NCBI RefSeq assembly: GCF_000354175.2 | Contig: NC_022349.1 | Span: 660,001 to 692,000, forward strand | Direction: 5' to 3' | DNA from: Vibrio alginolyticus NBRC 15630 = ATCC 17749 | GTDB taxonomy: Bacteria; Pseudomonadota; Gammaproteobacteria; Enterobacterales; Vibrionaceae | Length of the DNA: 32,000 bases | Shown here: piece after piece, positions 4,279-21,007 of the stretch | Numbering within the stretch: position 1 is the stretch's first letter | Layout of the letters: every line of letters starts with the position of its first letter | The notes under the pieces: model-generated | Databases searched by the model: none | What the model was told of the DNA's origin: nothing | What the model saw: the letters and a program-made list of their open reading frames with translations, nothing else | Translations under genes and position numbers: made by a program

Positions 4279-4451
4279 TACTTCTTCACTCCTTGGTTAT
4301 TAGGGGTCTTTTGTTCTTCGTCAGCAAACACCAAGTTGGCATCTTCTTCAAAGCGTGCTTTACGCTTTTTACTAAATGCCCACCATACGATGCCAATAAA
4401 ACTAGCGAAGAGTACAACGGTATAAATACTATGAATTGTACCGAAATCCAT
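4278..4451 (-). CDS. ccoQ: cbb3-type cytochrome c oxidase subunit IV CcoQ (57 aa; not in the ORF track)
   Basis: Hand translation gives MDFGTIHSIYTVVLFASFIGIVWWAFSKKRKARFEEDANLVFADEEQKTPNNQGVKK*. Single TM helix, located between ccoO and ccoP. Confidence 0.8.
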   Translation of the reverse strand: MDFGTIHSIYTVVLFASFIGIVWWAFSKKRKARFEEDANLVFADEEQKTPNNQGVKK

Positions 4452-4460
4452 ATGATCCCC

Positions 4461-5081: not shown

Positions 5082-5093
5082 TCTTAAATCTCC

Positions 5094-6527: not shown

Positions 6528-6778
6528 GCTTCCAATTTCTAATTAACTACACTTTTACTTCCAACACGACTTGCGTCGTAACACCACCCAAGTAAACTCT
6601 AGAATTCAAGTGTTATCATCACCTTATTTCCATTGCTGACTTTAATAAAAAGTGGCATTTTCAGCGTGACACTATACTTGAATTAACAATTCAATGACAG
6701 GGTAGTAACCTTACTGGACCTCTGGAAATCATTTTTTATTTAAAAAGTTTGAAGTTTGTAACAAGGATATTAGTAATT

Positions 6779-7135
6779 ATGCCTGCACAAAAGTTAACAA
6801 AGGCGCGACTTGCACAAATCTTAATCATGCTCAGTGTTTTAATAGGCGCATTTTTCTGGCGTACCTTTACACACGAGAGTGTCAATAGCGTTGACTGTTC
6901 ACAAAAAGAACGATGCGATGTAACAATTGAAGGAGAAATAATCACGATTAATCGTGACTCAATGGGAATTTCGCTCGAAACGACAGAAAGTAGCACTCTA
7001 AAAATTGATCTAAATCAATCTGGTAATTTTATCAATCTCAACGAAAAGCATAAGTCAGTAGAATGGGACATCATGCCTGAATCGAAAAAAATCACCTTTA
7101 AAAAAGGTGAAAACATTGTTGTAGTTCAATTATAA
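6779..7135 (+). CDS. Hypothetical membrane-anchored protein
   Basis: ATG at 6779 within the 6749 track ORF. MPAQKLTKARLAQILIMLSVLIGAFFW forms a single N-terminal TM helix followed by a soluble domain of about 90 aa. I recognise no motif. Confidence 0.4.
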   Translation: MPAQKLTKARLAQILIMLSVLIGAFFWRTFTHESVNSVDCSQKERCDVTIEGEIITINRDSMGISLETTESSTLKIDLNQSGNFINLNEKHKSVEWDIMPESKKITFKKGENIVVVQL

Positions 7136-7248
7136 ATACGATCTATCACGAGATAATCGTAACTTATTAATGAAATTAACACCTTCTTACCTAGAGAAAA
7201 TTGGTTGGAATGGTATAACAGCAGAGTGATATCCAATTATAAAATCGT

Positions 7249-8430
7249 ATGCATTGCCAATCAGTTTTTACTCATATTAAAGATGAAGACTCAGCGATAA
7301 AAACGCTCAGGTCCGAATTGACACAACAGAACTTGTCTTACGTGATGTGTTACTACACGGAAGAATACAATTTCGAGTTGATTCGAGAAGCGTTTCTTGC
7401 GCATTTTCCTGGTGTGCCTTTTCATGGCGCCAGTTCATGTCAAGCCGTAATGACAGATCAGGGCTTTCATACAGGACCAGTAATTGCGGCACTTGCTGTT
7501 TATGATACAGGTCCTCATGCTTATGGTACTGGTATTTCTAATCACAACTCAGGTGACAGCGTCACCAAGGCTTTGGATATGGCCCTTGAGAACGCAAACC
7601 GTGTAGGAGAGGTACCAAACTTAATTCTACTTCATGCTACACCAGGGCAAGAGGAATCAATCATTGCGTCTATAGATGAAAGATTTGGAACTCTAATTCC
7701 AATTATTGGTGGTTCGGCCGCTGATAATAACATCGCTGGGAAATGGTCTGTGATAACCGCCCAAGGCTCTCAAACTTCAGGTTTAAGCTTAACTCTCTTT
7801 TACTCCTCTCAACCTGTTGATATCGCTTTCAGCGCTGGGCATACACCAACTAATATCAAAGGTGTTGCAACCAAGACCAACGATAGATGCTTACTTGAAA
7901 TTGATAATGAACCTGCGCTCAATGTTTATAGAAGGTGGACAAATCACCAGGATAACCAAGTAGGTAAAGATAATATGCTGTTTACAAACTCGAGTGCTTA
8001 TCCATTAGGGCGGATCGCAGGTCATCTCTATGATCGCCCATATTACAAGTTATCCCATCCGATCCGTGAGACGCCAGATGGTGGAATCGAGTTGTTTACA
8101 CGAATAGAAGAGGGTGACGAGCTCACATTAATGAAAGGAAGTCGTGAGCATCTCGTTGCGCGCGCTGCAAAAGTCGTCAATGCCGCTTTTAACCAAAAAT
8201 TAGAAGAGTCTCGAAAAATTGGAGTGATAAATATCTTTTGCGCAGGTCCCATGTTGCACTTAATGCAAGACATGAATAGCGTTTGTGAACAAATTAACCA
8301 AGAACTAGAACATTTGCCTTTTATTTGCCCTTTTACTTTCGGCGAGCAAGGTAGATTTATTGGTGGTGAGAATGGACATGGAAACCTGATGATTTCATCG
8401 GCTATATTCCATAAACCTTATGAAAGATAA
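7249..8430 (+). CDS. FIST-domain signal transduction protein (FIST_N + FIST_C)
   Basis: 393 aa. The IIGGSAADN, PLGR and FCAGPM...FGEQG pattern is typical of FIST proteins. It is translationally overlapped with the downstream histidine kinase. Confidence 0.6.
   Translation: MHCQSVFTHIKDEDSAIKTLRSELTQQNLSYVMCYYTEEYNFELIREAFLAHFPGVPFHGASSCQAVMTDQGFHTGPVIAALAVYDTGPHAYGTGISNHNSGDSVTKALDMALENANRVGEVPNLILLHATPGQEESIIASIDERFGTLIPIIGGSAADNNIAGKWSVITAQGSQTSGLSLTLFYSSQPVDIAFSAGHTPTNIKGVATKTNDRCLLEIDNEPALNVYRRWTNHQDNQVGKDNMLFTNSSAYPLGRIAGHLYDRPYYKLSHPIRETPDGGIELFTRIEEGDELTLMKGSREHLVARAAKVVNAAFNQKLEESRKIGVINIFCAGPMLHLMQDMNSVCEQINQELEHLPFICPFTFGEQGRFIGGENGHGNLMISSAIFHKPYER
7553..7565. other. matS site (MatP-binding motif GTGACRNYGTCAC)
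   Basis: Exact match GTGACAGCGTCAC inside the FIST gene. This fits a Ter macrodomain location, with matP and dif in the same window. Confidence 0.6.
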
Positions 8431-10141
8431 ATACTTAGACATATATCAACAGGAAGCGCTTCAAGAAGCGTTAGTTGAGCTAAAGCAGGCTAGACAAAGA
8501 GAACGACTACTCGCTGATGAAAACAAGGCCATTCTTTCCGCGATATCTGCGATGAGTGAGGCAAAGAATCGGCATGAGATATTTACGGGATTAAACAATG
8601 TCCTCAAAAAGTACATCAACTTCGATGATTTTATTGTACTGACTCGTGATGGTGAACGATATCCCTTCAAGACATTGATATCAACTAATAGCGTATTTGA
8701 TAATGTATCCTGGTTACACGGTAACACCTATCAAAGAGCTCTCAATGGTGAATGCATTCTACTGTTCGAGCCAGATAAACTCGCTGAGTTTGTTAACTTA
8801 AACAGCTTTATAAAAAGCCATGTAAACTCGGTCGTTTTAACTGGTATACGTTCAGAAGTAACGCAAACCGTAATCCTACTTATTGGAGCTCAGAAAGGGC
8901 ACTTTAGCATAGAGAATAAGGAAACCTTGAGGCGGTTTCGTCCCTTAATTGAAAGGGCGGTCATTGATATCGAAACCAAAGAGAAGTTACAACGTATCGT
9001 TGAAGTAAGAACAACTCAGCTCGCTAAAGCAAGAGAAGAAGCAGAGCTTGCGAACCGGTCTAAGTCGGAGTTCTTAGCGATGATGAGTCATGAAATAAGA
9101 ACCCCTTTAAATTCCGTTCTTGGAATGCTAGATATACTGAAGCAATCAACCTTGTCAGAAGAACAAATTGATGCTTTGAGCCAAATGGAGTGCTCTGCAG
9201 AGTTACTTCTCGCGATAATCAGTGACATTCTTGATCTTTCTAAAATCGAGTCAGGTCGCTTTCAGCTCAATGAACAATGGATTAACTTAAGAGACACTGT
9301 CACTTTTGTTATTTCTCAGCAAAAACAAATCGCTAAGAAGAAAAATCTTAAATTCAAGCTCAACTGTACTGTCACTAATGACAAACAATTTTGGATTGAC
9401 TCCACGCGGTTATCTCAAATTCTGTTTAATCTAATAGGGAATGCAATAAAGTTTACAGACGAAGGTGAAGTAAAAGTTTCTGTATCTGAGCAAGATGCTG
9501 AACTTGTGATCTCAATATCTGACACTGGAATTGGTATATCTAAAGCAAAGCAAGAGCACTTGTTTACGGCATTTCATCAAGGAGACCGTTCCATCACGAG
9601 ACGCTTCGGTGGTACAGGACTGGGGCTCGCAATAACCAAGCATTTAGTTGAAATGATGCGTGGCAAGATTGCCGTTAAAAGTGATGAGCATGTTGGTTCA
9701 ACCTTTACGATTTCGATTCCAGTTTTGACTCGTTGTAATCAAAATCGTCCAGTTAGAATCGAAACCAATCAACCGACAAAAGCAATGGAACTTCTCGTCG
9801 TAGAAGATACCGAGTCGAATCAGTTCGTAATAAAGCTTATCTTAAATAAGCTTGGCCATAATGTTCATATCGCAAGCCATGGAGCAGAGGCATTAACATT
9901 TTTAGAAGAGAATGAGGATTTAATCGATTTGATTCTCATGGATGTCTCGATGCCAGTGATGGATGGAATTACCGCAACAAGACTTATTCGAGATAAAGGT
10001 CTCAGGACCCCAATTATAGCGTTAACTGCACATGCGCTAGAAAGCGATAGAGATAAATGCCTGGATGCCGGTATGGACGGATTCATTTCTAAGCCAGTTA
10101 GAAGACAAGATATCTTTGAAGCTATACAGTCATTTCAATAA
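8420..10141 (+). CDS. Cytoplasmic hybrid sensor histidine kinase / response regulator
   Basis: 573 aa. H-box SHEIRTPLN; ATPase boxes [20 protein letters not shown]; C-terminal receiver domain ([13 protein letters not shown] ... SKP). No TM segments. Its start overlaps the FIST stop by 11 nt. Confidence 0.85.
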
Positions 10142-10152
10142 GTAAAAAGGCG

Positions 10153-10198
10153 TTAATATAGATCTTAACAATCGATAGATTATTAAGATCTATATTAA
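10153..10198 (+). terminator. 16-bp perfect inverted repeat after the kinase gene (probable terminator)
   Basis: TTAATATAGATCTTAA - 14 nt - TTAAGATCTATATTAA, beginning 12 nt after the stop and followed by the T-rich sequence gtatttta. Confidence 0.45.
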
Positions 10199-10312
10199 GT
10201 ATTTTATGGTAAATAACCATTATGTTTAATGCTCACAGTAAGGCCCTTAAATTTAAAATCTGCAGGGGAATAGGAGCATACTCAGACAACATTTAGCGTA
10301 CGGCGATATACA

Positions 10313-10340
10313 ATTTAACATAACACATATAATGCGCACT
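10313..10340. other. dif: dif-type XerC/XerD recombination site, forming the left junction of the prophage
   Basis: ATTTAACATAA-CACATA-TAATGCGCACT with canonical 11-6-11 architecture. Both arms match the Vibrio/E. coli dif arms as I remember them. Confidence 0.85.
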
Positions 10341-10683
10341 GATATAGTGGTTCCTGTGGACTTGAAATCACTAAGGCTAATCCAGTGCAAGCCATTGAGA
10401 TTCCTGACAATCCAAGCCCATTAAACTTTTTTGCAATTCCTTCCCATACTGCTTTTATCTGCGGATTATCATTGCGATCAGCGTGACAACCCAGCAATGC
10501 AATCTCAGGGTCTAAACCTGATTGCTCTGCAAGAAAAATTGCTTGTGTATCAGTCATATAACGCTTTCCTTTGCGGAAATCACTGATTCTTTGCGGCGGC
10601 ACATTCATATCCGCTGCAATTTGTTTGTCTTGTACGTAACTTTGAGCCTTTTTGTAGGCATCTAATAGTTTGTTCTGATACAT
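10315..10683 (-). CDS. Phage HTH transcriptional repressor (size equals vpf122 of Vf33 as I recall)
   Basis: 122 aa with a putative helix-turn-helix around QIAADMNVPPQRISDFRKGKRY. It is divergent from the phage structural and replication operon. Its last 9 codons lie inside the dif site. Confidence 0.7.
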   Translation of the reverse strand: MYQNKLLDAYKKAQSYVQDKQIAADMNVPPQRISDFRKGKRYMTDTQAIFLAEQSGLDPEIALLGCHADRNDNPQIKAVWEGIAKKFNGLGLSGISMACTGLALVISSPQEPLYQCALYVLC

Positions 10684-10720
10684 ACCGCTTCCTCCGTTTC
10701 CGTCAGTTTAGCTTATCAAT

Positions 10721-10783
10721 CACCATTTTTGGTGTCTTGCGCTAACCAATTTTGGTGATTACGCTAATAACCAAATTTGGTTA
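10721..10783. promoter_or_regulatory. Three operator-like palindromes in the divergent phage promoter region
   Basis: CACCATTTTTGGTG (10721-10734), AACCAATTTTGGTG (10744-10757) and TAACCAAATTTGGTTA (10768-10783). They share an ACCA-N6-TGGT core with centres spaced about 23-25 bp apart, between the repressor and the first plus-strand gene. Confidence 0.6.
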
Positions 10784-10809
10784 CTCAGTTAAATTTGCTT
10801 GGTGTTGCT

Positions 10810-11433
10810 ATGAAAAAACTCTCTACTCAGAACGCGATCATTCTTGATACGGAAACTACTGGTTTAGGTTCTCAAGCAGAAATTGTCGAGTTCACTGCTA
10901 TCTGCGCTCACACTGGCAAAGTTATCGTGAACGAACTTGTTAAACCTACATGTTCGATTCCTGCTGACGCAACGGCTATTCATGGCATCACCGATGAAGA
11001 CGTTAAGGATGCGCCCGACTTTCATTTAGTCTTCTCAAACCATTTTCTTCCGCTTCTTAACGGTCGTCCAATCATCATCTACAACTCAGATTTTGATACG
11101 CGCTTAATTATCCAATCTTTGGATAAGCACTGTAACGCTGCTTACGTCCAATCCGTTCACGATTTGTTTTTCAAGTTCTGTGTTCCTCAATGCGCAATGC
11201 TTTGGTATGCAGAGTTCTTTGGTGTTTGGAATGAACACCATGAAGATTACAAGTGGCAAGCACTTTCCAACGCTTGCGCTCAACAGAATGTTGATGTGTC
11301 TGACTTAACGGCGCACCGTGCACTGGCTGATTGTGAAATGACTCGTCGATTGATTCACACCGTTAACTCACAGATTGAAAACCAAAACAATCAAAACTGT
11401 GACAGCGTCACTAAGCCTAGTTCAGAGGCTTAA
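10810..11433 (+). CDS. DEDDh 3'-5' exonuclease (DnaQ/epsilon-like fold)
   Basis: ATG at 10810, in frame inside the TTG-started track ORF. ExoI motif ILDTETTG, ExoII motif IIIYNSDFD, ExoIII motif HRALADCEMTRRL. Confidence 0.8.
   Translation: MKKLSTQNAIILDTETTGLGSQAEIVEFTAICAHTGKVIVNELVKPTCSIPADATAIHGITDEDVKDAPDFHLVFSNHFLPLLNGRPIIIYNSDFDTRLIIQSLDKHCNAAYVQSVHDLFFKFCVPQCAMLWYAEFFGVWNEHHEDYKWQALSNACAQQNVDVSDLTAHRALADCEMTRRLIHTVNSQIENQNNQNCDSVTKPSSEA
11399..11411. other. matS-consensus 13-mer inside the prophage
   Basis: Exact GTGACAGCGTCAC, identical to the chromosomal copy at 7553-7565. It lies at the 3' end of the exonuclease gene. Confidence 0.5.
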
Positions 11434-11436
11434 TCC

Positions 11437-11652
11437 ATGAACGAAGCTCAAATCATCTATTACGACTTGCTGCCTGACTACACGGTTTCTGTGTTGGTCA
11501 AAGGTTGCGACGAATGGGATTTGCTTAAATCCATGTCTCATCTTGAGTCTTGGGCTTCGTCTCAGTTCGCTTCTTATGAGTTGGTGTCCATCACCAACAC
11601 GACCGTTGAACAACGTATCAATATGGGGGTGTTCGATGACTACTGCAACTAA
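11437..11652 (+). CDS. Hypothetical small phage protein (71 aa)
   Basis: ATG lies 3 nt after the exonuclease stop. The ORF overlaps the rep start by 17 nt, suggesting translational coupling. No motif recognised. Confidence 0.45.
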   Translation: MNEAQIIYYDLLPDYTVSVLVKGCDEWDLLKSMSHLESWASSQFASYELVSITNTTVEQRINMGVFDDYCN

Positions 11653-12784
11653 CATCCTCAAAAAGTTCGATGAGCAAAGCGTTCATATTGATTACCTGTG
11701 TTTTACGTTTGCCGTGAAAGACTTACGTCATTGTCATGATGCGGTTCGTCGATTGCACAAGCATGAGGAATACAAAGGCTTTGCCAAATCAGGACTGTTA
11801 CAGCGTCACTGTCGTGCGCCTAAGTTCCCTGCTCCACCTGTATTTAATCCGACCGTCGCTAAGACGTCTGAAGACATTGAAGCGTACAACAAAGCATTTG
11901 ATATCTGTTACCGCAACTACTTGGAAGACTGCTTGCGCATCTTCACCAATCAAGTGCTTGGTTTGTCGCTGTCTGCGCCTCGCGGTTTGGGTTTCCAGTT
12001 CTACACCGAATCCATGAAACTGACTTCGCCAGATGGTGAGGACTTCTGCGGCTTCGTTGGTATCGGCGGTAACAATGACACGGTGCATTTCCAAATCAAC
12101 GGAACGGGATGCAAGCATGTATTTGCCCGTCGTCCTACGTGGTCGCTACATGACTGGCTGACCAATGTACTTGGTGTGCAAACTCTGGCGCGTGTTGACT
12201 TGGCTTATGACGATTACGACGGGATTTTCGATTGCGAATACGCTTACAAGGCGTGGCGCGACGACTGTTTCAGAACGGCTGAACGTGGCCGTGGTCCTGT
12301 GCTTCATGAAGATATGACCATTGCCAGTATCGGCAAAGACGGCAAACCGATTTACACCAAAGAGCAATACTCGATTGGTTCGCGTACCTCGCGCATTTAC
12401 TGGCGTATCTACAACAAGGCACTTGAGCAGAAACTCGCAAACACGGGTCTTGTTTGGTATCGCTCTGAAGTCGAGCTTAAAAAATGGAATGTTGATGTGT
12501 TGCTGAATCCGGCTGGCGCGTATGCCGCGCTCAATGATTTCGCTGCGTCTATTTCTACCGCTAAGAAATTCAATACCAAACCTGTCCCGACGAAGCGCGC
12601 GGCGTTAGACCTGTTGGCCTCTGCGCATTGGATGCGTCGCCAGTACGGGAAAATCCTTAATTCACTTATCGAGTTCCATGAGGGCGACATTGAAACCGTG
12701 GTCGGTTCCCTTGTCCGTGATGGAACGAAATTCACCTTCCCCGATACCTACGGCAAGTTGGTGACTCACATATTGGAGACTTAA
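11636..12784 (+). CDS. Rolling-circle replication initiation protein (Rep_trans / RstA / pII-like)
   Basis: MTTATNILKKFDEQSVHIDYLCFTF matches the N-terminal IDxLxFT motif of the Rep_trans family, and RIYWRIYNKALE resembles the catalytic-Tyr RxYDK motif. An alternative upstream ATG at 11576 would give 402 aa (vpf402-like). Confidence 0.75.
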   Translation: MTTATNILKKFDEQSVHIDYLCFTFAVKDLRHCHDAVRRLHKHEEYKGFAKSGLLQRHCRAPKFPAPPVFNPTVAKTSEDIEAYNKAFDICYRNYLEDCLRIFTNQVLGLSLSAPRGLGFQFYTESMKLTSPDGEDFCGFVGIGGNNDTVHFQINGTGCKHVFARRPTWSLHDWLTNVLGVQTLARVDLAYDDYDGIFDCEYAYKAWRDDCFRTAERGRGPVLHEDMTIASIGKDGKPIYTKEQYSIGSRTSRIYWRIYNKALEQKLANTGLVWYRSEVELKKWNVDVLLNPAGAYAALNDFAASISTAKKFNTKPVPTKRAALDLLASAHWMRRQYGKILNSLIEFHEGDIETVVGSLVRDGTKFTFPDTYGKLVTHILET

Positions 12785-12787
12785 CAA

Positions 12788-13141
12788 ATGGCTAAATCCG
12801 TTTTTGTACTTGGCATGGATATCACTTGGAATTCAGCACGTGGTGACAGTGCTCAACTGAACGTGTCGCGTCCTCTACGTGAAATCAACTCAGAGAAATT
12901 CAAACGCCGCACTATCGGTGAATCCGGTGATGTGAATCCACAGTGGGACCAACCGTTGATGATTGATCATCAATACGCCCTATTACTTGAGCGTACTGGT
13001 GCTCTCGTTCCTCGCCGTGAATACCAATTGCGTTTGGAGATTAACCCAGACGATCCATTGGCAGGTGCCATTGTGACAGAACTCATCCCTGTGGATGACG
13101 ACATCAAGAAACATTTTGAAGCCTCGCTAAAGGCTAAATAA
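12788..13141 (+). CDS. Probable phage ssDNA-binding protein (pV analogue; 117 aa)
   Basis: It lies immediately after rep, as in other Vibrio inoviruses. Its size equals vpf117. No independent motif supports the call. Confidence 0.5.
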   Translation: MAKSVFVLGMDITWNSARGDSAQLNVSRPLREINSEKFKRRTIGESGDVNPQWDQPLMIDHQYALLLERTGALVPRREYQLRLEINPDDPLAGAIVTELIPVDDDIKKHFEASLKAK

Positions 13142-13152
13142 GGAATTTCGTT

Positions 13153-13398
13153 ATGCCTGTGTGTGCTTTACCTAACGCGGACGGTTTTCTCGCTGTCGTT
13201 CCTGACATTGAAGCGGCTTCATGCCGCGGTTATGTCATGGTGACGGCTCAAGAATATGACACGTTAATGAGCTACACACAGCTGACTCCAGGAGAGATAT
13301 CTCAAGCGTTCGGCTTGGGTTTCACCTTGGTGTTCGTTGGCGGATATCTCTCAACTTACGCCATCAAGATGGCAATACGTTTAATAAAACTACTTTGA
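13153..13398 (+). CDS. Small phage membrane protein (81 aa)
   Basis: C-terminal hydrophobic segment FGLGFTLVFVGGYLSTYAI. It lies between the ssb-like and major coat genes. Its size equals vpf81. Confidence 0.5.
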   Translation: MPVCALPNADGFLAVVPDIEAASCRGYVMVTAQEYDTLMSYTQLTPGEISQAFGLGFTLVFVGGYLSTYAIKMAIRLIKLL

Positions 13399-13408
13399 GG
13401 AATCTGTT

Positions 13409-13642
13409 ATGAAACGTCTAAACGCGCTTAAAAAGTTCGGTAAACAAGCGGCGGCAACCGTCACTGTTGCGGTGCTTTCTGTCCCTGCTATGGCGGCGGA
13501 AGGTGGTGCAGCTGACCCGTTCTCCGCTATCGACTTATCTGGTGTGGCAACCAAAATCGGCGCGGCTGGTCTGGTGATTGTCGGCATTACTATGGCTTAC
13601 AAATCCATCACCCTTGCTAAGCGTGCTGTGAACAAGGCTTAA
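13409..13642 (+). CDS. Major coat protein (pVIII-like)
   Basis: 77 aa. Signal peptide ...AVLSVPAMA/AEGG, an acidic N-terminus in the mature protein, a hydrophobic core (GAAGLVIVGITMAY) and a basic C-terminus (KRAVNKA). Confidence 0.85.
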   Translation: MKRLNALKKFGKQAAATVTVAVLSVPAMAAEGGAADPFSAIDLSGVATKIGAAGLVIVGITMAYKSITLAKRAVNKA

Positions 13643-13646
13643 GTTT

Positions 13647-13739
13647 ATGTTGGCCGTTCTCCACGATGTCCAACTCATCGTCTTTGTGCTTTTGGGTGGC
13701 ATTGCCGGATACGTGGCCAGCCAAAACTTTAGAGGATAA
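13647..13739 (+). CDS. Possible minor coat micro-protein (30 aa, pVII/pIX-like)
   Basis: Hand translation gives MLAVLHDVQLIVFVLLGGIAGYVASQNFRG*. It is hydrophobic and sits between the coat gene and the terminator. Not in the ORF track. Confidence 0.3.
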   Translation: MLAVLHDVQLIVFVLLGGIAGYVASQNFRG

Positions 13740-13762
13740 GGGGGCTTCGGCTCCCTTTTTTA
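13740..13762 (+). terminator. Intrinsic terminator or attenuator after the coat genes
   Basis: GGGGGC-TTCG-GCTCCC hairpin followed by TTTTTTATT. This is the classical inovirus position, downstream of gVIII. Confidence 0.75.
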
Positions 13763-13775
13763 TTGGTTTAATACA

Positions 13776-15251
13776 ATGAATCACTATCTCCGTTTTTTTA
13801 TTGCCCTTGTTATTCTATGCGCTAGTCATCATACGTATGCTTTAGAAGCACGTATTAGTCATATGCAAATGAGGGGGTGTGGCTCTCAAGGTGATTGGGT
13901 TGACCCTTACAAGGTGAATACTTGTTTTTTGGATACTGGGTATTTCGACTCATGCACATTTGAGAAGACATCATATGCTAATGCTCGCGATCCCTATCAA
14001 ACAGTTTGTGATAATGGGCTCGGTCTTTCTTATTCTGAGGTTCGTTGTCCAGAAAATAGCGAATTTGACCCTTCAACCTTACGTTGTAAATCGGTTTGTG
14101 AATATGGCAAGAACCCTGACGGCACTTGTATGGACGTGTGTCAGTTTAAAAAGTCCATTGATGAAATCAAATCGCTTCAGTGGTTGGCTTATGTCTATGG
14201 CGAACAAGTGACAGGGTCATGTTACGGCGATTATGGCGCAACCCGTTGTGAATTGGAGCGTACTCCTAGTGATAGTACGCTGTGTACGGGTGTTGATTCC
14301 GGCCAATGGACACAAAACACCATCTGTCATGGTAACTTTCAATTCACAGGCAACCAGTGTGAAGGCGGTACACTCTTCTGGGGTAAAGATGGCCCTGACA
14401 CCCCTATTATTCCTGATGACCCCATTCATGACCCTGACGACCCAACAGGCGACATCGAAGACCCTAGCGTATTACCTGATGGCTCAACCAATACGGTGAA
14501 TCCACCGGATACCGACAGTGAGCCAGACGTGGAAGAGCCAGACACCGATGAATCGACAGACACGGCAGTTCTGAAAGCCATTACTGGAATGAATAAGGAC
14601 GTCAACAAAGCACTAAACGACATGAACATCGACATCAATCAAGCCAGTGCTGACGTTCAAAACCAAATCATTGCGCTGAATGCGTCGATGGTCACCAACA
14701 CGCAAGCCATTCAAAAGCAGCAAATCAACGACAACAAGATTTACGAAAACACTAAGGCCCTTATCCAACAAGCGAATGCTGACATCACCACGGCCATGAA
14801 CAAGAACACCAATGCCGTTAATGGTGTGGGTGACGATGTAGAGAAAATTGCAGGGGCAATGGATGGTATCGCGGATGAAGTTTCCGGTATTTCTGACACC
14901 TTAGACGGTATCGCAAACACAGATACGTCTGGTGCAGGTACGGGTGGTACGTGTATCGAGTCCCAAAGTTGTACCGGATTTTATGAGTCGGGCTATCCCG
15001 ATGGCTTAGGTGGTTTGGTGTCCGGTCAGTTAGATGATCTTAAACACAACACCATCGACAACTTTGTGAACTCGTTTGGTGACCTCGACTTATCCAGTGC
15101 CAAGCGCCCTTCTTTCGTGCTCCCTGTGCCGTTCTTCGGTGACTTCAGTTTTGAGGAGCAAATCAGCTTTGATTGGGTGTTCGGTTTTATTCGTGCGGTG
15201 CTCATCATGACGTCAGTGTTTGCGGCGCGTCGTATTATTTTTGGAGGTTAA
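13776..15251 (+). CDS. Minor coat / adsorption protein (pIII-like)
   Basis: 491 aa with a signal peptide, Cys-rich N-terminal domains and a D/P-rich linker (PIIPDDPIHDPDDPTGDIEDP...EPDTDES). It also has an N/Q-rich helical region and a C-terminal hydrophobic anchor. Confidence 0.8.
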   Translation: MNHYLRFFIALVILCASHHTYALEARISHMQMRGCGSQGDWVDPYKVNTCFLDTGYFDSCTFEKTSYANARDPYQTVCDNGLGLSYSEVRCPENSEFDPSTLRCKSVCEYGKNPDGTCMDVCQFKKSIDEIKSLQWLAYVYGEQVTGSCYGDYGATRCELERTPSDSTLCTGVDSGQWTQNTICHGNFQFTGNQCEGGTLFWGKDGPDTPIIPDDPIHDPDDPTGDIEDPSVLPDGSTNTVNPPDTDSEPDVEEPDTDESTDTAVLKAITGMNKDVNKALNDMNIDINQASADVQNQIIALNASMVTNTQAIQKQQINDNKIYENTKALIQQANADITTAMNKNTNAVNGVGDDVEKIAGAMDGIADEVSGISDTLDGIANTDTSGAGTGGTCIESQSCTGFYESGYPDGLGGLVSGQLDDLKHNTIDNFVNSFGDLDLSSAKRPSFVLPVPFFGDFSFEEQISFDWVFGFIRAVLIMTSVFAARRIIFGG

Positions 15252-15252
15252 T

Positions 15253-15567
15253 ATGGATTGGTTAGTCGATTTATTTAACAAGCTGTTGGTGTTCCTCTAT
15301 CAGCTTTTAATCTCGCTGGTCAACATGCTCAAAGACCTGTTCTTTTGGGCGGTTGAGCAAATCATGGCAATGGTGAACCTGTTGCTCTCTGGTGTGTTCT
15401 CCCTATTCGCTCCGGTCGATATGAGCCAGTACATGACCAGTATTCCGCCTACTGTGGCTTGGGTTATGGCGGCGGTCGGTGTGCCTCAATGTCTGTCCAT
15501 CATTCTGGCCGCTATTACGGTGCGTTTGATGCTGCAATTGATTCCGTTTACGAGGTTAGGCTCATGA
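15253..15567 (+). CDS. pVI-like minor coat protein (104 aa)
   Basis: ATG at 15253 follows the RBS GGAGG. The protein is highly hydrophobic with multiple TM helices. It lies between the pIII and Zot genes and shares an ATGA overlap with the next gene. Confidence 0.65.
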   Translation: MDWLVDLFNKLLVFLYQLLISLVNMLKDLFFWAVEQIMAMVNLLLSGVFSLFAPVDMSQYMTSIPPTVAWVMAAVGVPQCLSIILAAITVRLMLQLIPFTRLGS

Positions 15568-16706
15568 TATACGCCATAGCAGGAAGACCAGGAGGCGGTA
15601 AAACCTATGAGGCTGTTGCCTACCATATTATTCCGGCCATTAAGGATGGCCGTAAAGTCATCACCAATATCACCTTAAACATTGATTGGTTCGTTAAGGT
15701 GTTTGGTGAAGACGTTCGAGAACTCATCAAAATCGTGGATGGCCGTTTAACGGATTTTGGTTCAACCTCACGTCCTTTCAGTCAGATTGAAGACTACTCC
15801 GACGAATGGCGCAATGAAAAAGGACAAGGGCCACTTTATGTGGTCGATGAGGCGCACATGAGCTTGCCAAGTCGAGGCTTGGCCGCGCCCATTCTAGAAT
15901 GGTACTCAATACACCGTCACTACGGTGTCGATATCATCTTGCTCACGCAGAACATCCGCAAAGTGCATCGAGACATTAAGGACATGATTGAAGTGACCTA
16001 CCGATGCACAAAGAACACGGCTATGGGCTCAACCAGTTCTTACACCAAGAAAGTGCAAGATGGTTGTGCCGGTGAAGTGGTGAACACCTCTACCCGATTT
16101 TATAAGTCGGAATACTTCCCGTTCTATAAGAGTCATTCGCAATCCAACAAGCAAGTGCAGGAAGCCGAAGCAAAAGACATTCGCCCGTTCTGGAAGCGTT
16201 GGCCTGTCGTCGGAACGGTGGTGCTGTTATCGCTTGGGTTAGTTTTCAATATCTGGGCTTGGTGGCCGGAGCCAGAGCAACCGCCCGACCCCGTTAAACC
16301 ACCACAACCAGTACAAACGCAGCTGCCTGATGGAACGCCAACGGTAGATACGGCAGAAACCAAAGCTAAGAAGAAAAAGAAAGCATCAGGGTTTGGGCCT
16401 TTGGAAGATTACGACTTCTACATCACCGGATACGCAAAGCAAATCGCCTACGCCAAACGGCTGAAATATGCTGCCGAACTAGACCGTGACCTGACGTTCT
16501 ACAAGATATACATCGATGTGTACGATGGCCGCGACAAGCTATTCAGTTTCGATCATCTGGACTTGGTAAAGATTGGGTATCAGTTCGAAGTGTTGAGCGA
16601 CTGCGTATATCGAGTGACTTGGGAAGAAACAGAAAGGATCTTCACGTGCGGCCAAAGAGAAAAGCCATCAGACATATTGCAGCAAAACATGCCTGTCCAT
16701 ATCTAG
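15564..16706 (+). CDS. Zot / pI-like assembly ATPase (380 aa)
   Basis: MIYAIAGRPGGGKTYEAV is a Walker A motif and LYVVDEAH a Walker B motif. There is a central TM helix (WPVVGTVVLLSLGLVFNIWAWW) and a Pro-rich periplasmic linker. Confidence 0.85.
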   Translation: MIYAIAGRPGGGKTYEAVAYHIIPAIKDGRKVITNITLNIDWFVKVFGEDVRELIKIVDGRLTDFGSTSRPFSQIEDYSDEWRNEKGQGPLYVVDEAHMSLPSRGLAAPILEWYSIHRHYGVDIILLTQNIRKVHRDIKDMIEVTYRCTKNTAMGSTSSYTKKVQDGCAGEVVNTSTRFYKSEYFPFYKSHSQSNKQVQEAEAKDIRPFWKRWPVVGTVVLLSLGLVFNIWAWWPEPEQPPDPVKPPQPVQTQLPDGTPTVDTAETKAKKKKKASGFGPLEDYDFYITGYAKQIAYAKRLKYAAELDRDLTFYKIYIDVYDGRDKLFSFDHLDLVKIGYQFEVLSDCVYRVTWEETERIFTCGQREKPSDILQQNMPVHI

Positions 16707-16808
16707 ACCGCTCGCCACAGCGTCGAAGCTAGCGTAGTCTGCGTAGACCGAGGAAGCGGAACATGTAGGACACCAAACCTTGGCACTTCCACACCGAACT
16801 TAATCATG

Positions 16809-16831
16809 GGGCTCTATACGAGCCCTTTTTT
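16809..16831 (+). terminator. Intrinsic terminator ending the phage morphogenesis operon
   Basis: GGGCTC-TATAC-GAGCCC followed by T6. Confidence 0.7.
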
Positions 16832-16962
16832 ATTACGTGCGCGGTATTGCGAGCATTTTGGGAGGGGCCCGCTTTGCGGGAGGGACCTAAAAGCGGAGCA
16901 AACCCCCGAATCTGTATTACGGGGGTAAATTCCCACTCCTTACTAACCTTGTACTCTGGTAC

Positions 16963-16990
16963 AAAAAAGCCGAGCTATAAAAGCTCGGCT
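16963..16990 (-). terminator. Intrinsic terminator of the minus-strand 84-aa gene
   Basis: Perfect 9-bp stem AGCCGAGCT-ATAAA-AGCTCGGCT preceded on the plus strand by A6, which reads as T6 on the minus strand. It lies 38 nt after the stop at 17028. Confidence 0.7.
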
Positions 16991-17027
16991 GAATCTACTA
17001 AATACAAGCATGCATAAAAGTTTCGTT

Positions 17028-17282
17028 TTACTCGTCTTCTTCTAACGCCACAATTACCTGAGATATATATTTCGGTAAATTGCTTAGATGCTCATCTAGC
17101 CTTGTTCCCGTACGTTGTGACGTTGCAGAAATATCAGCTTTAATCAATTCTAAAACAACTGATGCTGCTGCATGCTTTTTCTCAGTGTCTGTCAGTGTGG
17201 AATATTCAGTTCTCCACTTCTCATTTGCGTTATCCCAATGTGGGATTGTTTTTAGAATATCTCCCATGTACTCATTAGACAT
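17028..17282 (-). CDS. Hypothetical small acidic protein (84 aa), cargo gene A
   Basis: ATG at 17282 preceded by the RBS AGGAGG (ttaggaggcacaATG). Sequence begins MSNEYMGDILKTIPHWDNANEKWRTEY... and ends ...VALEEDE. No motif recognised. Confidence 0.55.
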   Translation of the reverse strand: MSNEYMGDILKTIPHWDNANEKWRTEYSTLTDTEKKHAAASVVLELIKADISATSQRTGTRLDEHLSNLPKYISQVIVALEEDE

Positions 17283-17301
17283 TGTGCCTCCTAACAGGTG
17301 T

Positions 17302-17375
17302 TTGATGTGTGTCAATAATATGAAACCGTATACACACAAAATCAAGAAAATAATTAATTTAGCACGCTCGTGCTA
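17302..17375. promoter_or_regulatory. Inverted repeats in the divergent cargo promoter region
   Basis: TTGATGTGTGT (17302-17312) pairs imperfectly with ACACACAAAATCAA (17332-17345). There is also a perfect 7-2-7 palindrome TAGCACG-CT-CGTGCTA (17360-17375). Both lie between cargo genes A and B. Confidence 0.35.
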
Positions 17376-17577
17376 TGCAAATTATGTATTGCAGGCCGTT
17401 TCTAAACGATCCTCTGACCTTCGGAGAGAGCTGGAGCTGGTCGATACCTATTGTTAGGCCTTCATAGCAGTGCGACTTATAGAACTGAACATAGTTGAGT
17501 TCTTTAAACTCTATGGTGTACTATATTCGTGTTTTTATGCAAGGGGTAGCTCCCTTATCTCAATAGCAGTGTTTGAA

Positions 17578-18315
17578 ATGTATACAGACAATAAATTTGT
17601 TTTTTACGAAAAACAGTATTATCACGAAATAGAGTCCAAGCAGAAAATTGACCTTCGCTTGCAAACGATTATCGTTTTCACGTTTGCTTGGCTTAATTTA
17701 GCTACGTATACATTACAAGTTATAGATTATGAAAATAATAAATTAATCTCTCTGATATTTTATAACTTGATGGCAATGTATTTTATTTTCGTATTACAGA
17801 GCATGAGATACTCTATTTTCTCATTCTATGGTAGTACTTATCAATATTTACAATCTCCATTAGTGTTTGATGATTATTATAAAGACACTAATGACTATTA
17901 CACTAAGTACAAAAATGACCCCGATTTTGCGGATGAAGAACTTAAACTCTTTATCAAAGAGAACTTGATAAATTCTACACATCATAATTGCAAGCTTAAC
18001 GATGAAAGATCTCAAAAGGCTTTTGAGTCAGTAAAGTGGTTAGTAATATCTTTCTTACCCTTCTCGTTAGCATTCGCAATTTTTATAGCTTTTAAGCTAG
18101 ATTTAAAACACCCTACAAAACCTATTTTAATCGAAGAAACCAATCTATCAGGAGCACATATAAATGTCAGAGAAGGACGCACCTCAGAAACAGACAAAAC
18201 CATCATCGCCACCATCACGACCGATAGGAATTCGCTCTGTACGCAACCATGTAACGATTCCGGTGGAGAACCCATCACCAACTTCTCATCGCCAAGGTCA
18301 AAGGACGTTCTCTAA
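17578..18315 (+). CDS. Hypothetical 3-TM membrane protein, cargo gene B
   Basis: ATG at 17578 within the GTG-started track ORF. Predicted TM helices are LQTIIVFTFAWLNLATYTLQV, LISLIFYNLMAMYFIFVLQSM and WLVISFLPFSLAFAIFIAF, with a soluble Y/D/K-rich loop of about 80 aa between TM2 and TM3. The 3' end is uncertain because the last 150 nt overlap micro-ORF P1. Confidence 0.55.
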   Translation: MYTDNKFVFYEKQYYHEIESKQKIDLRLQTIIVFTFAWLNLATYTLQVIDYENNKLISLIFYNLMAMYFIFVLQSMRYSIFSFYGSTYQYLQSPLVFDDYYKDTNDYYTKYKNDPDFADEELKLFIKENLINSTHHNCKLNDERSQKAFESVKWLVISFLPFSLAFAIFIAFKLDLKHPTKPILIEETNLSGAHINVREGRTSETDKTIIATITTDRNSLCTQPCNDSGGEPITNFSSPRSKDVL

Positions 18316-18325
18316 TGAGGAGTAA
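18164..18325 (+). CDS. Proline-rich micro-ORF P1 (53 aa)
   Basis: AGGAG lies 9 nt upstream of the ATG. Sequence is MSEKDAPQKQTKPSSPPSRPIGIRSVRNHVTIPVENPSPTSHRQGQRTFSNEE*. It shares the motif KPSxPP..RPxG[IV]RxV with P2. Not in the ORF track. Confidence 0.35.
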   Translation: MSEKDAPQKQTKPSSPPSRPIGIRSVRNHVTIPVENPSPTSHRQGQRTFSNEE

Positions 18326-18330
18326 AGTTT

Positions 18331-18462
18331 GTGACAGATGACAACAAGAATGATAAAAAACCAAGTCCTCCACCTCCTCCACCTCGTCCACCTGGTGTTC
18401 GATATGTGAAAGATGGTTACAATCACGGTAAAGACAAAACCGAGAAGAAGAATAGAGGCTGA
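18331..18462 (+). CDS. Polyproline micro-ORF P2 (43 aa)
   Basis: GTG start 8 nt after GAGGAG. Sequence is (M)TDDNKNDKKPSPPPPPPRPPGVRYVKDGYNHGKDKTEKKNRG*. It ends 8 nt before the next gene. Not in the ORF track. Confidence 0.4.
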   Translation: MTDDNKNDKKPSPPPPPPRPPGVRYVKDGYNHGKDKTEKKNRG

Positions 18463-18470
18463 GTCTATTT

Positions 18471-18869
18471 ATGTACTTAGATATACTAGAATGCGAAGAA
18501 TATTTTTTCCCTAAACTAATAGAGCAATACTCTATGCTGGGAAATTACTTACAATCTTCAGACTATGTTAGTTTTGAAAATAACATTATAACTATTAATT
18601 TATTGTCTTATGAATTCAAATCAAAATATGGAGTTGTCTTTATAGATAAAAACATAAGATTGCGAGTTAAATTTGAAACTGTATCTTTAGATGGTGACGA
18701 TTTATACTTTGACTTGTACTTAGATCCTCAAGGTCGAATTTATTCTGACTACAATTCTATCTTAGATAAAAACTACGTAGATATTTTAGAGCGCAGTAGC
18801 GTTAAATCAATTGACAAATATATTTCTGAGTTTGTTTATAACTTTCTAAGTAAAAATAGCTTGATATAA
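18471..18869 (+). CDS. Hypothetical acidic cytosolic protein (132 aa), cargo gene C
   Basis: ATG start. Sequence begins MYLDILECEEYFFPKLIEQYS.... No TM helix, no signal peptide and no motif I recognise. It is the last gene of the plus-strand cargo operon. Confidence 0.55.
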   Translation: MYLDILECEEYFFPKLIEQYSMLGNYLQSSDYVSFENNIITINLLSYEFKSKYGVVFIDKNIRLRVKFETVSLDGDDLYFDLYLDPQGRIYSDYNSILDKNYVDILERSSVKSIDKYISEFVYNFLSKNSLI

Positions 18870-18877
18870 AGAAATAA

Positions 18878-18900
18878 AAGTTAGGCTCATAGCCTAACTT
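18878..18900. terminator. Bidirectional intrinsic terminator
   Basis: Perfect 10-bp stem AAGTTAGGCT-CAT-AGCCTAACTT flanked by A-rich sequence on the left and T-rich sequence on the right. It lies between convergent genes. Confidence 0.75.
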
Positions 18901-18906
18901 TTACTT

Positions 18907-19272
18907 TTACATGATTTTTTTCAATGCTCTAGCGTACTTTAGTACTTTTCCCGCAGCTTCTAAATCAGTCAATGCTCCAATCTCTAACAACGCAATTCCA
19001 GTCAAAACTTGCTGAGCCGTTACCAGCTGTCCTGTTGGAAGCTCTAGTCTGTCGTAGTGCATTTTAAAGTGCTCCCATTGTTCTGATGGGCTCAATTCCC
19101 TTCCTTTTGTCATTCTCATGAGTCGTTTACACTCAGGAGGAATGGTTTTCCCCTTATCCCATTCTTTGACCGTTCTCACAGTTTTCAAACAAAGTTCAGC
19201 AGCTTGTTCGACGGATAAACCACATTCAAATTCACGAAAAATATAGTTTTTAGTCATTTCGTGATACTTCAT
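18907..19272 (-). CDS. HTH + DUF3653-like protein (XafT-like candidate Xer activation factor)
   Basis: ATG at 19272 follows GAGGGA; the track ORF starts at an upstream TTG. LSVEQAAELCLKTVRTVKEWDKGKTIPPECKRLMRMTKGRELSP...LELPTGQLVTAQQV follows the HTH-WxxG-PP...L.xPxG pattern I associate with DUF3653. It ends 53 nt from the right att site. Confidence 0.55.
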   Translation of the reverse strand: MKYHEMTKNYIFREFECGLSVEQAAELCLKTVRTVKEWDKGKTIPPECKRLMRMTKGRELSPSEQWEHFKMHYDRLELPTGQLVTAQQVLTGIALLEIGALTDLEAAGKVLKYARALKKIM

Positions 19273-19324
19273 TGAATAGTCCCTCAAAAGAGAGACATTT
19301 TATAGGACTGGCATATGCAATCGC

Positions 19325-19353
19325 ACTCAACATAAGCAGATATAATGCGCACT
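19325..19353. other. dif-like hybrid site, forming the right junction of the prophage
   Basis: ACTCAACATAA-GCAGATA-TAATGCGCACT. The XerD arm is perfect (11/11). The XerC arm matches the left-site arm at 9/11. The spacer is 7 nt if the arms are aligned this way. Orientation is the same as the site at 10313. Confidence 0.75.
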
Positions 19354-19792
19354 AAGGGGGGTAAACTCAAAGCAATAATGTCCGGTTTTAGCTGCTTTAA
19401 AATGTCATCCTAAGATTAACAACATTGTTTTCTTTTGAAGCTTTAACCGAGGTTTCTGTGGGCTTGCAATCGCTAGTTTGGTTTGTGGTTATGCTTACGA
19501 AGCAAATCAAATCTCTTATTGAAAATTGATGCGCGCGTAGTCCTCGACTTACTGGCGTGTTCTTCCGTAAGTACCTGAATCAATCTATGTATGGTGATGA
19601 TGGCCAACTCACTGAATTTGCCATTCAATGGCATCACGATTACTAACTTAAGCGCTACCAAACAAAAAAGCCTTTCATACTCGCCTCGTACAACAGCAAA
19701 AATCAGCTAAACGCTCTAATCGCTCCGCAACGAAATCTGCCAAAAATCACGAGCTCAGTTCACTCGCTCTTAATCAAGGCGTTCTGAAACAT

Positions 19793-20116
19793 TTATAAGC
19801 CTGTGGTTATATGGAGGCGAATGTACTTTTCGGGGTATTTGTAACGATAGCGTTTTCCTTTCTTCAAGTTGGACTTAACGTACCTACACACTTTTTGGTC
19901 ACCACTGCTGGTTACTCTTTTTATTACTGCGTTTTTACTTTTGTGCTCCATTTCTATCATGACGTCACAATAACCTTGATAGCCATCAAACTTATTGTCT
20001 ACTTTCTTTTGAAGCTTAGTCTTAATCTTTTTAGCCAACAGGTTCGTTTCTGAATCGTCAGCAAAAACTGAATTACTTGTAAAGATCAATACCATTAAAG
20101 TTACAACGTATCTCAT
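19793..20116 (-). CDS. Secreted small protein with a TolA C-terminal (domain III)-like pattern
   Basis: ATG at 20116 (MRYVVTLMVLIFTSNSVFA/DD is a signal peptide). The mature part ...FDGYQGYCDVMIEMEHKSKNAVIKRVTSSGDQKVCRYVKSNLKKGKRYRYKYP fits the G..C.V.I...(x)V..V..SGD...C......L.K....P spacing of TolA domain III. Confidence 0.45.
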   Translation of the reverse strand: MRYVVTLMVLIFTSNSVFADDSETNLLAKKIKTKLQKKVDNKFDGYQGYCDVMIEMEHKSKNAVIKRVTSSGDQKVCRYVKSNLKKGKRYRYKYPEKYIRLHITTGL

Positions 20117-20180
20117 CGTTTTGGTCCGTTTATGTTGTTGATTGTTCGATGATAAGTAATTTTTCTGTAGATACGAAAAT

Positions 20181-20200
20181 GGGACGCCACATTGCGTCCC
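20181..20200 (-). terminator. Hairpin downstream of the DUF3634-like gene
   Basis: GGGACGC-CACATT-GCGTCCC, a 7-bp stem. The minus strand continues ATTTTCG, which is a weak T-tract. Confidence 0.4.
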
Positions 20201-20230
20201 ATTTAACATGATGAAGTAACTGATATGTAA

Positions 20231-20557: not shown

Positions 20558-21007
20558 CTAGCTAGATAGCAATTTACTCAAATCCTCTTTAATTGAGGTA
20601 ACTTTTTGACTCGCTTTTTCACTTCTCGACGCTTCGGAAAGCAAATATTCAATTGCGTCAGATAACGTACAACCAAGTTCATTCGCTCTACTAGAAAGCT
20701 TTTCCCAAACTCGGTAATCTAAATCAATGGATTTTTTCTTTGTATGGACTTGCTCTGCATTGAAGTGACGTTTCCGTTTCGCTCGGATAGCCTGCTTGAG
20801 TTTATTATCTAACTCTTCTGACATGTGGTTTTCTATCCAAGCCAAGACAAGTGTAGGCTCGTGTTCAAGGCGTTTTAGTTCTGCGACCGCTGCATCTGCT
20901 TCGCTTGTATCAATATGTCGGGTAATCGCTTCACCATCTTTCCATTTTTTGATGAGATACTTCCATTTCCACCCACATTCTAGATTCTCAAGCTGCTGAT
21001 ATTTCAT
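20558..21007 (-). CDS. matP: Macrodomain Ter protein MatP
   Basis: 149 aa. MKYQQLENLECGWKWKYL...RAKRKRHFNAEQVHTKKKSIDLD is near-collinear with E. coli MatP. Confidence 0.9.
   Translation of the reverse strand: MKYQQLENLECGWKWKYLIKKWKDGEAITRHIDTSEADAAVAELKRLEHEPTLVLAWIENHMSEELDNKLKQAIRAKRKRHFNAEQVHTKKKSIDLDYRVWEKLSSRANELGCTLSDAIEYLLSEASRSEKASQKVTSIKEDLSKLLSS

Follow-up and report, generated by a model that had tools for sequence, protein, structure and literature searches.

A 32,000-nucleotide (nt) stretch of DNA from Vibrio alginolyticus NBRC 15630 = ATCC 17749 (contig NC_022349.1, positions 660,001 to 692,000; hereafter the window, in which coordinates count from the first letter) contains a dif-flanked inovirus prophage of the Vf33/VALGphi8 type. 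The ORF8-type variable slot of this prophage (16953-18906) is occupied by horizontally acquired cargo with five open reading frames (ORFs), A on the minus strand and B, C1, C2 and E on the plus strand (Table 1). The original prediction, made from the letters alone, singled out these ORFs as one five-gene module. All five ORFs are confirmed, with their coordinates, but the finding is narrower than that prediction had it: the conserved unit consists of three genes, B, C1 and C2, not five. The anatomy of this cassette, as described below, is in our judgement very probably correct.

Table 1. Features of the prophage cargo block and its surroundings (coordinates of the window)
Feature	Coordinates	Strand	Description
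dif1-like site, prophage left end	10313-10340	+	2 mismatches to V. cholerae dif1; zero expected by chance
zot (phage morphogenesis) operon terminator	16808-16826	+	stem-loop and T-run; identical in Vf33 and VALGphi8
Left slot junction with gene A terminator (16968-16990)	16953-16992	-	9-pair hairpin, then TTTTTT on the minus strand
Gene A	17028-17282	-	84 amino acids (aa), acidic (isoelectric point, pI, 4.9), accessory; AGGAGG; phrog_24846 (function unknown)
Divergent A/B intergenic region	17283-17577		palindrome TAGCACGAGCGTGCTA (17360-17375), hairpin in sequence; presumed promoter/operator
Gene B	17578-18315	+	predicted three-helix membrane protein; conserved core residues 1-~193 (17578-~18160)
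B transmembrane helix (TM) 1	17665-17724	+	T30-I49
B TM2	17743-17826	+	L56-F83
B TM3	18037-18093	+	W154-F172
B juxtamembrane motif	18094-18138	+	KLDLKHPTKPILIEE
Gene C1	18164-18325	+	53 aa, basic (pI 10.3), proline-rich; motif KPSSPPSRPIGIRSVR; +1 frame of the B 3' end
Gene C2	18331-18462	+	43 aa, basic (pI 9.8), GTG start; motif KKPSPPPPPPRPPGVRYVKDG, then Lys-rich tail
Gene E	18471-18869	+	132 aa, acidic (pI 4.5), soluble, accessory; phrog_31168 (function unknown)
Bidirectional terminator of cargo block and gene R	18872-18906	both	13-16 bp stem, T-runs on both strands
Gene R ("XafT-like" in the original prediction)	18907-19287	-	phage backbone, outside the cargo; ORF9 of Foxall 2023

The product of gene B is predicted to span the inner membrane with three helices and belongs to a large proteobacterial family that has no name. 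The three hydrophobic helices pointed out previously are confirmed and are supported by AlphaFold models, in which the N-terminal helix runs on into TM1, a short loop connects TM1 to TM2, and a helical domain precedes a long final helix whose end forms TM3. Homologues of B, when clustered at 90% identity, fall into 17 groups that all come from Vibrio; the B profile, searched against 1.84 billion representative proteins, retrieves 1,969 sequences at E<=1e-3, of which 860 reach E<=1e-10. The named members, from Geomonas, Duganella, Janthinobacterium, Desulfogranum, Magnetococcales and others, are all annotated as "hypothetical". Most of the family members have a length of 230-310 aa and a polyproline tail at the C-terminus, for example PPPPPPPPPPRQIREGVEVVKP; four or more consecutive prolines follow TM3 in 90 of 120 members, and those without the tail end in T/A/S-rich strings that correspond to CCN codons read out of frame. 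The confidence of the models (predicted local distance difference test) is 77-93 over residues 1-177 of B and 93-98 over residues 1-175 of a homologue with a fused tail, modelled from a 120-sequence alignment. In the Vibrio alignment, conservation of B ends around residue 190, a few codons ahead of the C1 start codon at 18164. The remainder of the ORF (18164-18315) is non-conserved read-through beneath C1, where homologues vary in length and sequence, and the B tail TIIATITTDRNS is the frame shadow of KPSSPPSRPIGIR in C1. The ATG at 17578 (245 aa) is supported as the B start because all homologues start at the methionine of MY[ST]DNKF; some public annotations begin B at a GTG at 17470 (281 aa).

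The two micro-ORFs are paralogous, with the consensus K-P-S-x-P-P-x-R-P-x-G-[IVT]-R-x-V in C1 and K-K-P-x-P4-8-[KR]-P-x-G-V-R-[YF]-V-K-D-G, followed by a Lys-rich tail, in C2. They begin with MSEKD and MTDDN, respectively, and contain neither a hydrophobic leader nor cysteine, which holds also in other lineages. C1 overlaps the last 152 nt of the B ORF and lies in the +1 frame in every Vibrio lineage, and GGAG precedes the ATG or GTG of both C1 and C2 by 6-11 nt in all eight Vibrio lineages. The test of selection proposed in the original prediction, the ratio of non-synonymous to synonymous substitutions, is uninformative for near-identical relatives, with one substitution in 299 nt (synonymous in C1 and non-synonymous in the B frame), but the codon-position bias in diverged pairs does support coding. 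In two moderately diverged pairs, substitutions at codon positions 1, 2 and 3 number 4, 0, 13 and 3, 2, 14 in C2, and 19, 11, 22 and 8, 7, 16 in C1; the minimum at position 2 of C1 is the third position of B. Retention in eight lineages, dedicated Shine-Dalgarno sequences and start codons, and this bias jointly identify C1 and C2 as genuine genes. A programmed frameshift joining B to C1 was considered and appears unlikely, given a TAA in the C1 frame just before the ATG and a GGAG with a start codon in every lineage. In a collection of 15 billion proteins, exact C1 is absent and C2 is present solely via the annotation of one strain. The Prokaryotic Genome Annotation Pipeline (PGAP) calls neither gene in the V. 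parahaemolyticus loci L057-L062 (~4812-4968).

Searches with tblastn and ORF maps show that C1 and C2 accompany B in eight of eight Vibrio lineages, in which the identity of B ranges from 42 to 98%. In these lineages the cassette resides on three backbones, namely, inoviruses of the Rep_trans type, inoviruses with GPA and secretin genes, and a plasmid-like contig. B follows zot where the carrier is a Rep_trans inovirus (V. crassostreae, V. vulnificus and another Vibrio) and the secretin gene in the GPA-type inoviruses of V. alginolyticus. The co-occurrence survey that the original prediction had called for thus finds only B, C1 and C2 always together; A is confined to the present phage lineage and E to five of the eight. 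From this pattern, the predicted functional unit is B together with C1 and C2, and A and E are lineage-specific additions. Gene A is found only alongside B and E, and the Vf33-like prophages that carry it, from V. alginolyticus and V. parahaemolyticus, are nearly identical to one another. Homologues of E (22-36% identity) follow C2 in four other Vibrio inovirus lineages, and a hidden Markov model search detects no E without B; in the remaining lineages, the position of E holds a PLD-like gene, an 81-aa ORF or no gene.

The same comparisons bear on the possibility that there is no functional unit at all, so that B would be a decaying or frameshifted gene, C1 its out-of-frame remnant, and the remaining ORFs unrelated or spurious. 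A change of one nucleotide at ATAAATG could derive C1 from a fused ancestor, and PGAP leaves C1 and C2 unannotated in V. parahaemolyticus genomes. Nevertheless, the split is retained with an intact GGAG and start codon in eight Vibrio lineages, down to 42% identity of B; the substitution patterns point to purifying selection in both the C1 and the C2 frames; and the peptide motif is conserved across phyla. On these comparative data, the decay scenario is largely refuted, and we consider it extremely improbable.

Outside Vibrio, the arrangement of the polyproline modules bears on the origin of the split seen in Vibrio. A scan of the genome collection with a Vibrio-only alignment yields no match; 35 non-Vibrio proteobacterial loci come from species-representative genomes scanned with a tighter alignment. 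Both polyproline modules are found in approximately 23 of these 35 loci and a single one in 5, with six truncated or otherwise unclear, and a run of 4-11 prolines followed by R-x-[IVLF] is present in approximately 28 of the 29 intact loci. Among the loci with two modules, the first (P7-11, then R-x-[IVL]-[KR]-[EDG]) is fused in-frame to the membrane protein in about 17 and lies in another frame in about 6. The second is a downstream ORF of 31-47 aa with the pattern M-[AST]-[ND]-[DE]-K...P7-11-x-R-[LM]-V-[KR]-[GDS]...KK whose start is placed at the stop codon that ends the membrane-protein gene or overlaps it. The first module is split off in at least seven loci besides those of Vibrio. The fission junction falls at a conserved internal Met preceded by codons that bear a GGAG-like Shine-Dalgarno sequence. 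C1 is accordingly the detached equivalent of the C-terminal polyproline tail of the family, and the Vibrio arrangement a fission of an ancestral tail. The "small soluble partners" of the original prediction are thus not novel orphans but detached copies of the tail of a wider family.

The cassette has diverse carriers, among them plasmids, integrase islands, P2-like myoviruses and inoviruses with two types of replication, in hosts from Beta-, Gamma- and Zetaproteobacteria, Desulfobacterota (the former "Deltaproteobacteria") and Campylobacterota. The cassette is found, for example, in a Geomonas TrwC/integrase element, in a P4-type integrase island and on conjugative plasmids of P. syringae. 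In IMG/VR, family members occur on 18 contigs, and one subgroup has three tandem polyproline ORFs. Among 320 neighbouring ORFs from 38 loci, which are heterogeneous, no conserved partner outside the cassette is detected.

Such a distribution, together with the compactness of the self-contained cassette and small ORFs that begin where the membrane gene stops or overlap its stop codon, is also what could be seen with an addiction (toxin-antitoxin-like) module, in which B would be a membrane toxin and the polyproline micro-proteins a labile antidote, stabilising the prophage, plasmid or island through the death of cells that lose it and not through defence against phages. In line with this, carriers include plasmids, integrative and conjugative elements and prophages, and the plasmid-like contig L010 encodes a PemK toxin and ParA. 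Yet the first "antidote" is covalently fused to the presumed toxin in most relatives, which is unusual for toxin-antitoxin pairs, and the cassette lies in cargo hotspots rather than beside replication or partition genes. We regard an addiction function as rather improbable.

Contextual evidence comes from Escherichia coli. The three-ORF subgroup is represented in 6 of 5,426 complete E. coli genomes, where the cassette lies directly after the portal gene gpQ of a P2-like prophage and before a DinI-like gene and the replication endonuclease. The B alignment matches the E. coli protein with an hhalign probability of 99.7% (E 2e-25, 33% identity over 181 columns). In E. coli NZ_CP035882.1 (L081 7078-8074), the B homologue is accompanied by three tandem polyproline ORFs of 45, ~45 and 35 aa, one of which is called by PGAP, with a longer upstream start. 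The gpA-gpQ region of P2, home of old and tin, is a validated hotspot of anti-phage systems (Rousset 2022), and the E. coli protein itself is catalogued there as system #96, with no Pfam family, 33 occurrences and "2 TM" (Rousset 2022, Table S5B). The cassette is thus partly anticipated by this catalogue entry, which represents the same protein family as B and, likewise, is cargo in a variable slot of a phage; system #96 differs in being a single-protein entry, from a P2-like myovirus in E. coli with three free modules, whereas the Vibrio inovirus cassette has two.

Other loci have defence-type neighbours as well. At L010 (6275-10206), the cassette is immediately downstream of PDC-M38A/B (E 9e-230 and 9e-41), and the same contig also encodes ArdC and an antirestriction protein. 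L012 and L020 have PDC-S31 (DUF2971) near the cassette, and in L012 the gene after the cassette is PLD/DrmC-like. The flanking genes of further loci include Septu, SIR2-HerA, AbiL/AriA-type ATPases and integrases. The L012/L013 locus (~3000-12100), from another Vibrio, is a different inovirus at the same chromosomal site, flanked by a FIST/histidine kinase on one side and DUF3634-MatP-Lon-FabA on the other; its slot contains B-C1-C2 and the PLD-like gene (PDC-S69/DrmC-like), with PDC-S31 beyond the latter.

Family members also show weak similarity to known defence effectors. When 76 B relatives are compared with PADLOC models, recurrent but sub-threshold matches are obtained to PycTM (6 relatives, best 2.8e-6), CARF_2M (4), the CBASS 2TM effector (1) and reverse transcriptase (RT)-associated SLATT (1), and 3 of the 76 match NCBIfam SLATT_4, also below threshold (best 5.8e-5); in Pfam, the top hits of these relatives do not include the SLATT families. 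Like B, the SLATT, PycTM and CBASS-2TM effectors of abortive-infection systems are small and helical membrane proteins in which helices lie on either side of a TM hairpin, and they are encoded in defence loci. The B family differs in having a third TM helix and in that no SMODS, TIR, cyclase, CARF or RT partner is conserved nearby in the 38 loci. In the literature searched, no polyproline partners of SLATT proteins are described, no polyproline or proline-rich small proteins are tied to anti-phage systems, and no functional test of the cassette was found.

On the strength of these comparisons, B-C1-C2 would be a self-contained, membrane-acting phage-exclusion or abortive-infection cassette carried in defence hotspots, an interpretation to which we give about an even chance. 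It is circumstantially supported because a homologue lies in the P2 hotspot, PADLOC-candidate genes are among the neighbours, and weak matches of the SLATT and PycTM type occur. Several observations weigh against it. Rousset 2022 catalogues system #96 without reported activity and does not mention the small ORFs. The defence-gene neighbours are raw occurrences, to which no background rate is attached, and many loci have signalling or housekeeping neighbours. None of the SLATT-type matches reaches its curated threshold, and spurious hits are common with membrane proteins; in Pfam, B relatives match scattered unrelated membrane families at 1e-3 to 1e-4, and B of the window itself matches no PADLOC, Pfam or NCBIfam model. 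A Foldseek comparison of B-family models with PDB and BFVD gives no match. AlphaFold leaves the tail disordered and undocked on the core, both in B and in the fused homologue, and, following three helices, the tail would be on the side of the membrane opposite the helical bundle, while the detached modules have no signal peptide.

The neighbours also permit another reading, that the cassette is a moron unrelated to phage conflict which alters envelope physiology, for instance ion leak, stress tolerance, surface or colonisation traits, or filamentous-phage secretion. The cargo of filamentous vibriophages often changes host traits, as in the case of ctxAB of CTXphi; histidine kinases, GGDEF proteins and transporters, that is, sensory and housekeeping genes, are neighbours at many loci; and the cassette proteins are of unknown function in every library. 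Against this, the spread over unrelated elements and phyla does not fit a host-specific role or one in inovirus morphogenesis, and the hotspot and the defence-candidate neighbours favour conflict. A moron of this kind is, in our estimate, unlikely.

A third alternative is exclusion at the level of the envelope, where the segment after TM3 would be a rigid, TonB-like polyproline rod in the periplasm that engages Tol, the pilus or other entry machinery and so blocks the entry of DNA from related phages. An N-in orientation with three helices would place the tail in the periplasm, and the K+R counts lean slightly towards N-in, although charge does not settle the topology. The polyproline spacer of TonB spans the periplasm. 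Spacers of this type are also discussed in PMC12204202, and resident inoviruses commonly exclude relatives (Foxall 2023). This model is, however, difficult to reconcile with the lack of a signal peptide or lipobox in C1, C2 and the three E. coli ORFs, with the repeated splitting off of the tail while the cassette is kept, and with carrier elements some of which use neither Tol nor pili; we consider it highly unlikely. PfsE of Pf4, a single membrane peptide of ~30 aa that acts on PilC according to the account of Schmidt 2022 given in Foxall 2023, resembles the cassette in being the product of an inovirus accessory gene that could shield a lysogen from other phages. There is no sequence relationship between the two, and C1 and C2 are soluble, basic, rich in polyproline and partnered with a 3-TM protein that extends beyond inoviruses.

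Several other known systems share features with the cassette. In Rz/Rz1, as in B/C1, the gene of a small proline-rich protein uses the +1 frame and is embedded in, or overlaps, the 3' part of a membrane gene, and embedded, overlapped and separated architectures are found among relatives. Unlike C1 and C2, Rz1 carries a signal peptide and a lipobox Cys and is a lipoprotein of the outer membrane, and Rz combines a single TM helix with a coiled coil in the periplasm; inoviruses, moreover, leave their host unlysed. A spanin role of C1 was rejected because it has neither lipobox nor signal peptide and lies outside any lysis cassette. The holin and lysozyme genes of the E. coli P2-like prophage are ~6.5 kb away from the cassette. 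B does not fit a holin either: its core is ~195 aa with a 65-aa helical domain, longer than the <150 aa of holins, and no endolysin gene is nearby; 2 of the 76 B relatives touch holin families (2e-4 and 1e-2). The gop-beta-cII hotspot system of P4 is comparable in combining a membrane toxin component with protective partner genes in a phage or satellite defence hotspot, and Gop is a small TM toxin, SLATT_4-like by HHpred (Rousset 2022, Table S3). Kinship between P4 Gop and the B family was rejected, with an hhalign probability of 0.2%.

If B-C1-C2 does act in phage exclusion or abortive infection, one mechanism can be tentatively envisaged, although we think it unlikely to hold as a whole. B would oligomerise as a latent membrane-permeabilising effector, similarly to SLATT, PycTM and 2TM effectors, and the polyproline modules, tethered or free, would be its regulatory or sensing partners. 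Translational coupling would fix the proportion of the modules to B, and infection would shift their supply or occupancy, releasing the effector. The peptides would be disordered, and polyproline stretches translate slowly and require elongation factor P (EF-P). A more specific and rather doubtful extension is an as yet undescribed kind of immune or conflict module, in which the tandem polyproline micro-proteins, with 7-11 consecutive prolines each and one to three per cassette, serve either as a gauge of the translation state or as bait for a phage protein, with E as a dedicated polyproline-binding adaptor in Vibrio inoviruses. As a gauge, their synthesis would require EF-P and proline-tRNA, such that disturbance by a phage would alter the peptide:effector ratio and the effector would open; as bait, the polyproline helix with the R-x-I-x-E motif would be recognised by a phage protein.

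Should the exclusion or abortive-infection reading be correct, a widespread cassette, with ~2,000 representative B-family proteins across Proteobacteria, would join the conflict systems of mobile elements, and a class of very short polyproline genes missed by annotation pipelines would be exposed. Vf33-type prophages, common in V. parahaemolyticus and V. alginolyticus, would carry defence-type cargo in the ORF8 slot, with a bearing on phage therapy and vibrio strain succession. The E. coli version, in a well-studied hotspot, would allow direct tests with existing phage panels.

The claim that no known family is recognisable in the five proteins holds: searches of Pfam, PADLOC, NCBIfam and PDB sequences yield no usable assignment for any of A, B, C1, C2 and E. 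In particular, PADLOC-DB v2.0 at E<=1 returns zero matching families for the five, a profile search of PDB sequences with the B family has no match, and E matches neither PDB nor Pfam. For A, B and E, PHROGs has near-identical families whose function is unknown, and none of the five ORFs is homologous to inovirus morphogenesis or regulatory proteins according to Pfam, PHROGs and phage tblastn. The perfect AGGAGG attributed to gene A is present on the minus strand at 17287-17292, 4 nt before the ATG. In the divergent A/B intergenic region, promoter-like sites show no excess over shuffle expectation; the palindrome TAGCACGAGCGTGCTA is a possible operator.

In the prophage that harbours the cargo, Vf33/Vf12 match approximately 11425-19693 at 94.7% identity and VALGphi8 at 97%, and exact protein matches for proteins of the window are N646_0609 and N646_0610 of ATCC 17749. 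The 14-nt arm ATATAATGCGCACT of the dif1-like site recurs at 19340-19353, and the prophage is therefore bracketed by dif-like sites; this bracketing and the nearby matP gene (20558-21007, just right of the prophage) are consistent with XerCD-type integration at the chromosome terminus. At the left edge, a 122-aa gene is 68% identical to a DUF3693-type gene in the same position of a V. crassostreae inovirus.

Conserved phage backbone lies on either side of the slot. Base-perfect homology with Vf33 and VALGphi8 continues to ~16952 and ends there; therefore, the slot begins at this point. The block genes are absent from Vf33, Vf12, VALGphi6/8, VfO3K6 and the vB_Vipa phages; a megablast search of 50,697 phage records with 16900-19000 aligns nothing beyond its first 74 nt, and tblastn with B finds no match in these records. 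Inoviruses of this group have a conserved core of ORF1-7 plus ORF9 and ORF10, with two variable regions whose functions are "not discernable" (Foxall 2023). The assignment to the ORF8-type slot, made in the original prediction, is borne out: gene R contains the exact PhORF9R1 primer of Foxall 2023 at 19251-19275, and R is therefore the conserved ORF9 of that study. Gene R is 80% identical in amino acid sequence to an unannotated Vf33 ORF, is present at nearly all related loci and has a weak match to HTH_3 in Pfam. As for the two terminators said to insulate the block, both hairpins are real, but the left one (16968-16990), which has a T-run on the minus strand only, ends gene A and not the morphogenesis operon, and the right one (18872-18906) is bidirectional.

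The contrast in composition noted earlier stands, with 13/60 G+C in the line at 17701 and 32/60 in that at 12001. Overall, G+C is 34.4% in the block (16991-18905) and 48.1% in the phage core (11425-16950); within the block it is 30% in the B core, 27% in E and 46% in C1-C2, the last because of runs of CCN proline codons. This bump (18164-18462) inside genes of 27-30% accounts for the 40% of the composition interval 18001-18500. The pIII-like receptor-binding gene (13776-15251; 8032-9669 in the V. parahaemolyticus loci L057-L062) differs in length between otherwise near-identical prophages with the same cargo, its product having 429, 491, 509 or 545 aa. Just outside the right end of the prophage, a 138-aa protein encoded on the minus strand (19793-20209) has an apparent signal peptide and a weak match to the TolA C-terminal domain (E 0.03).

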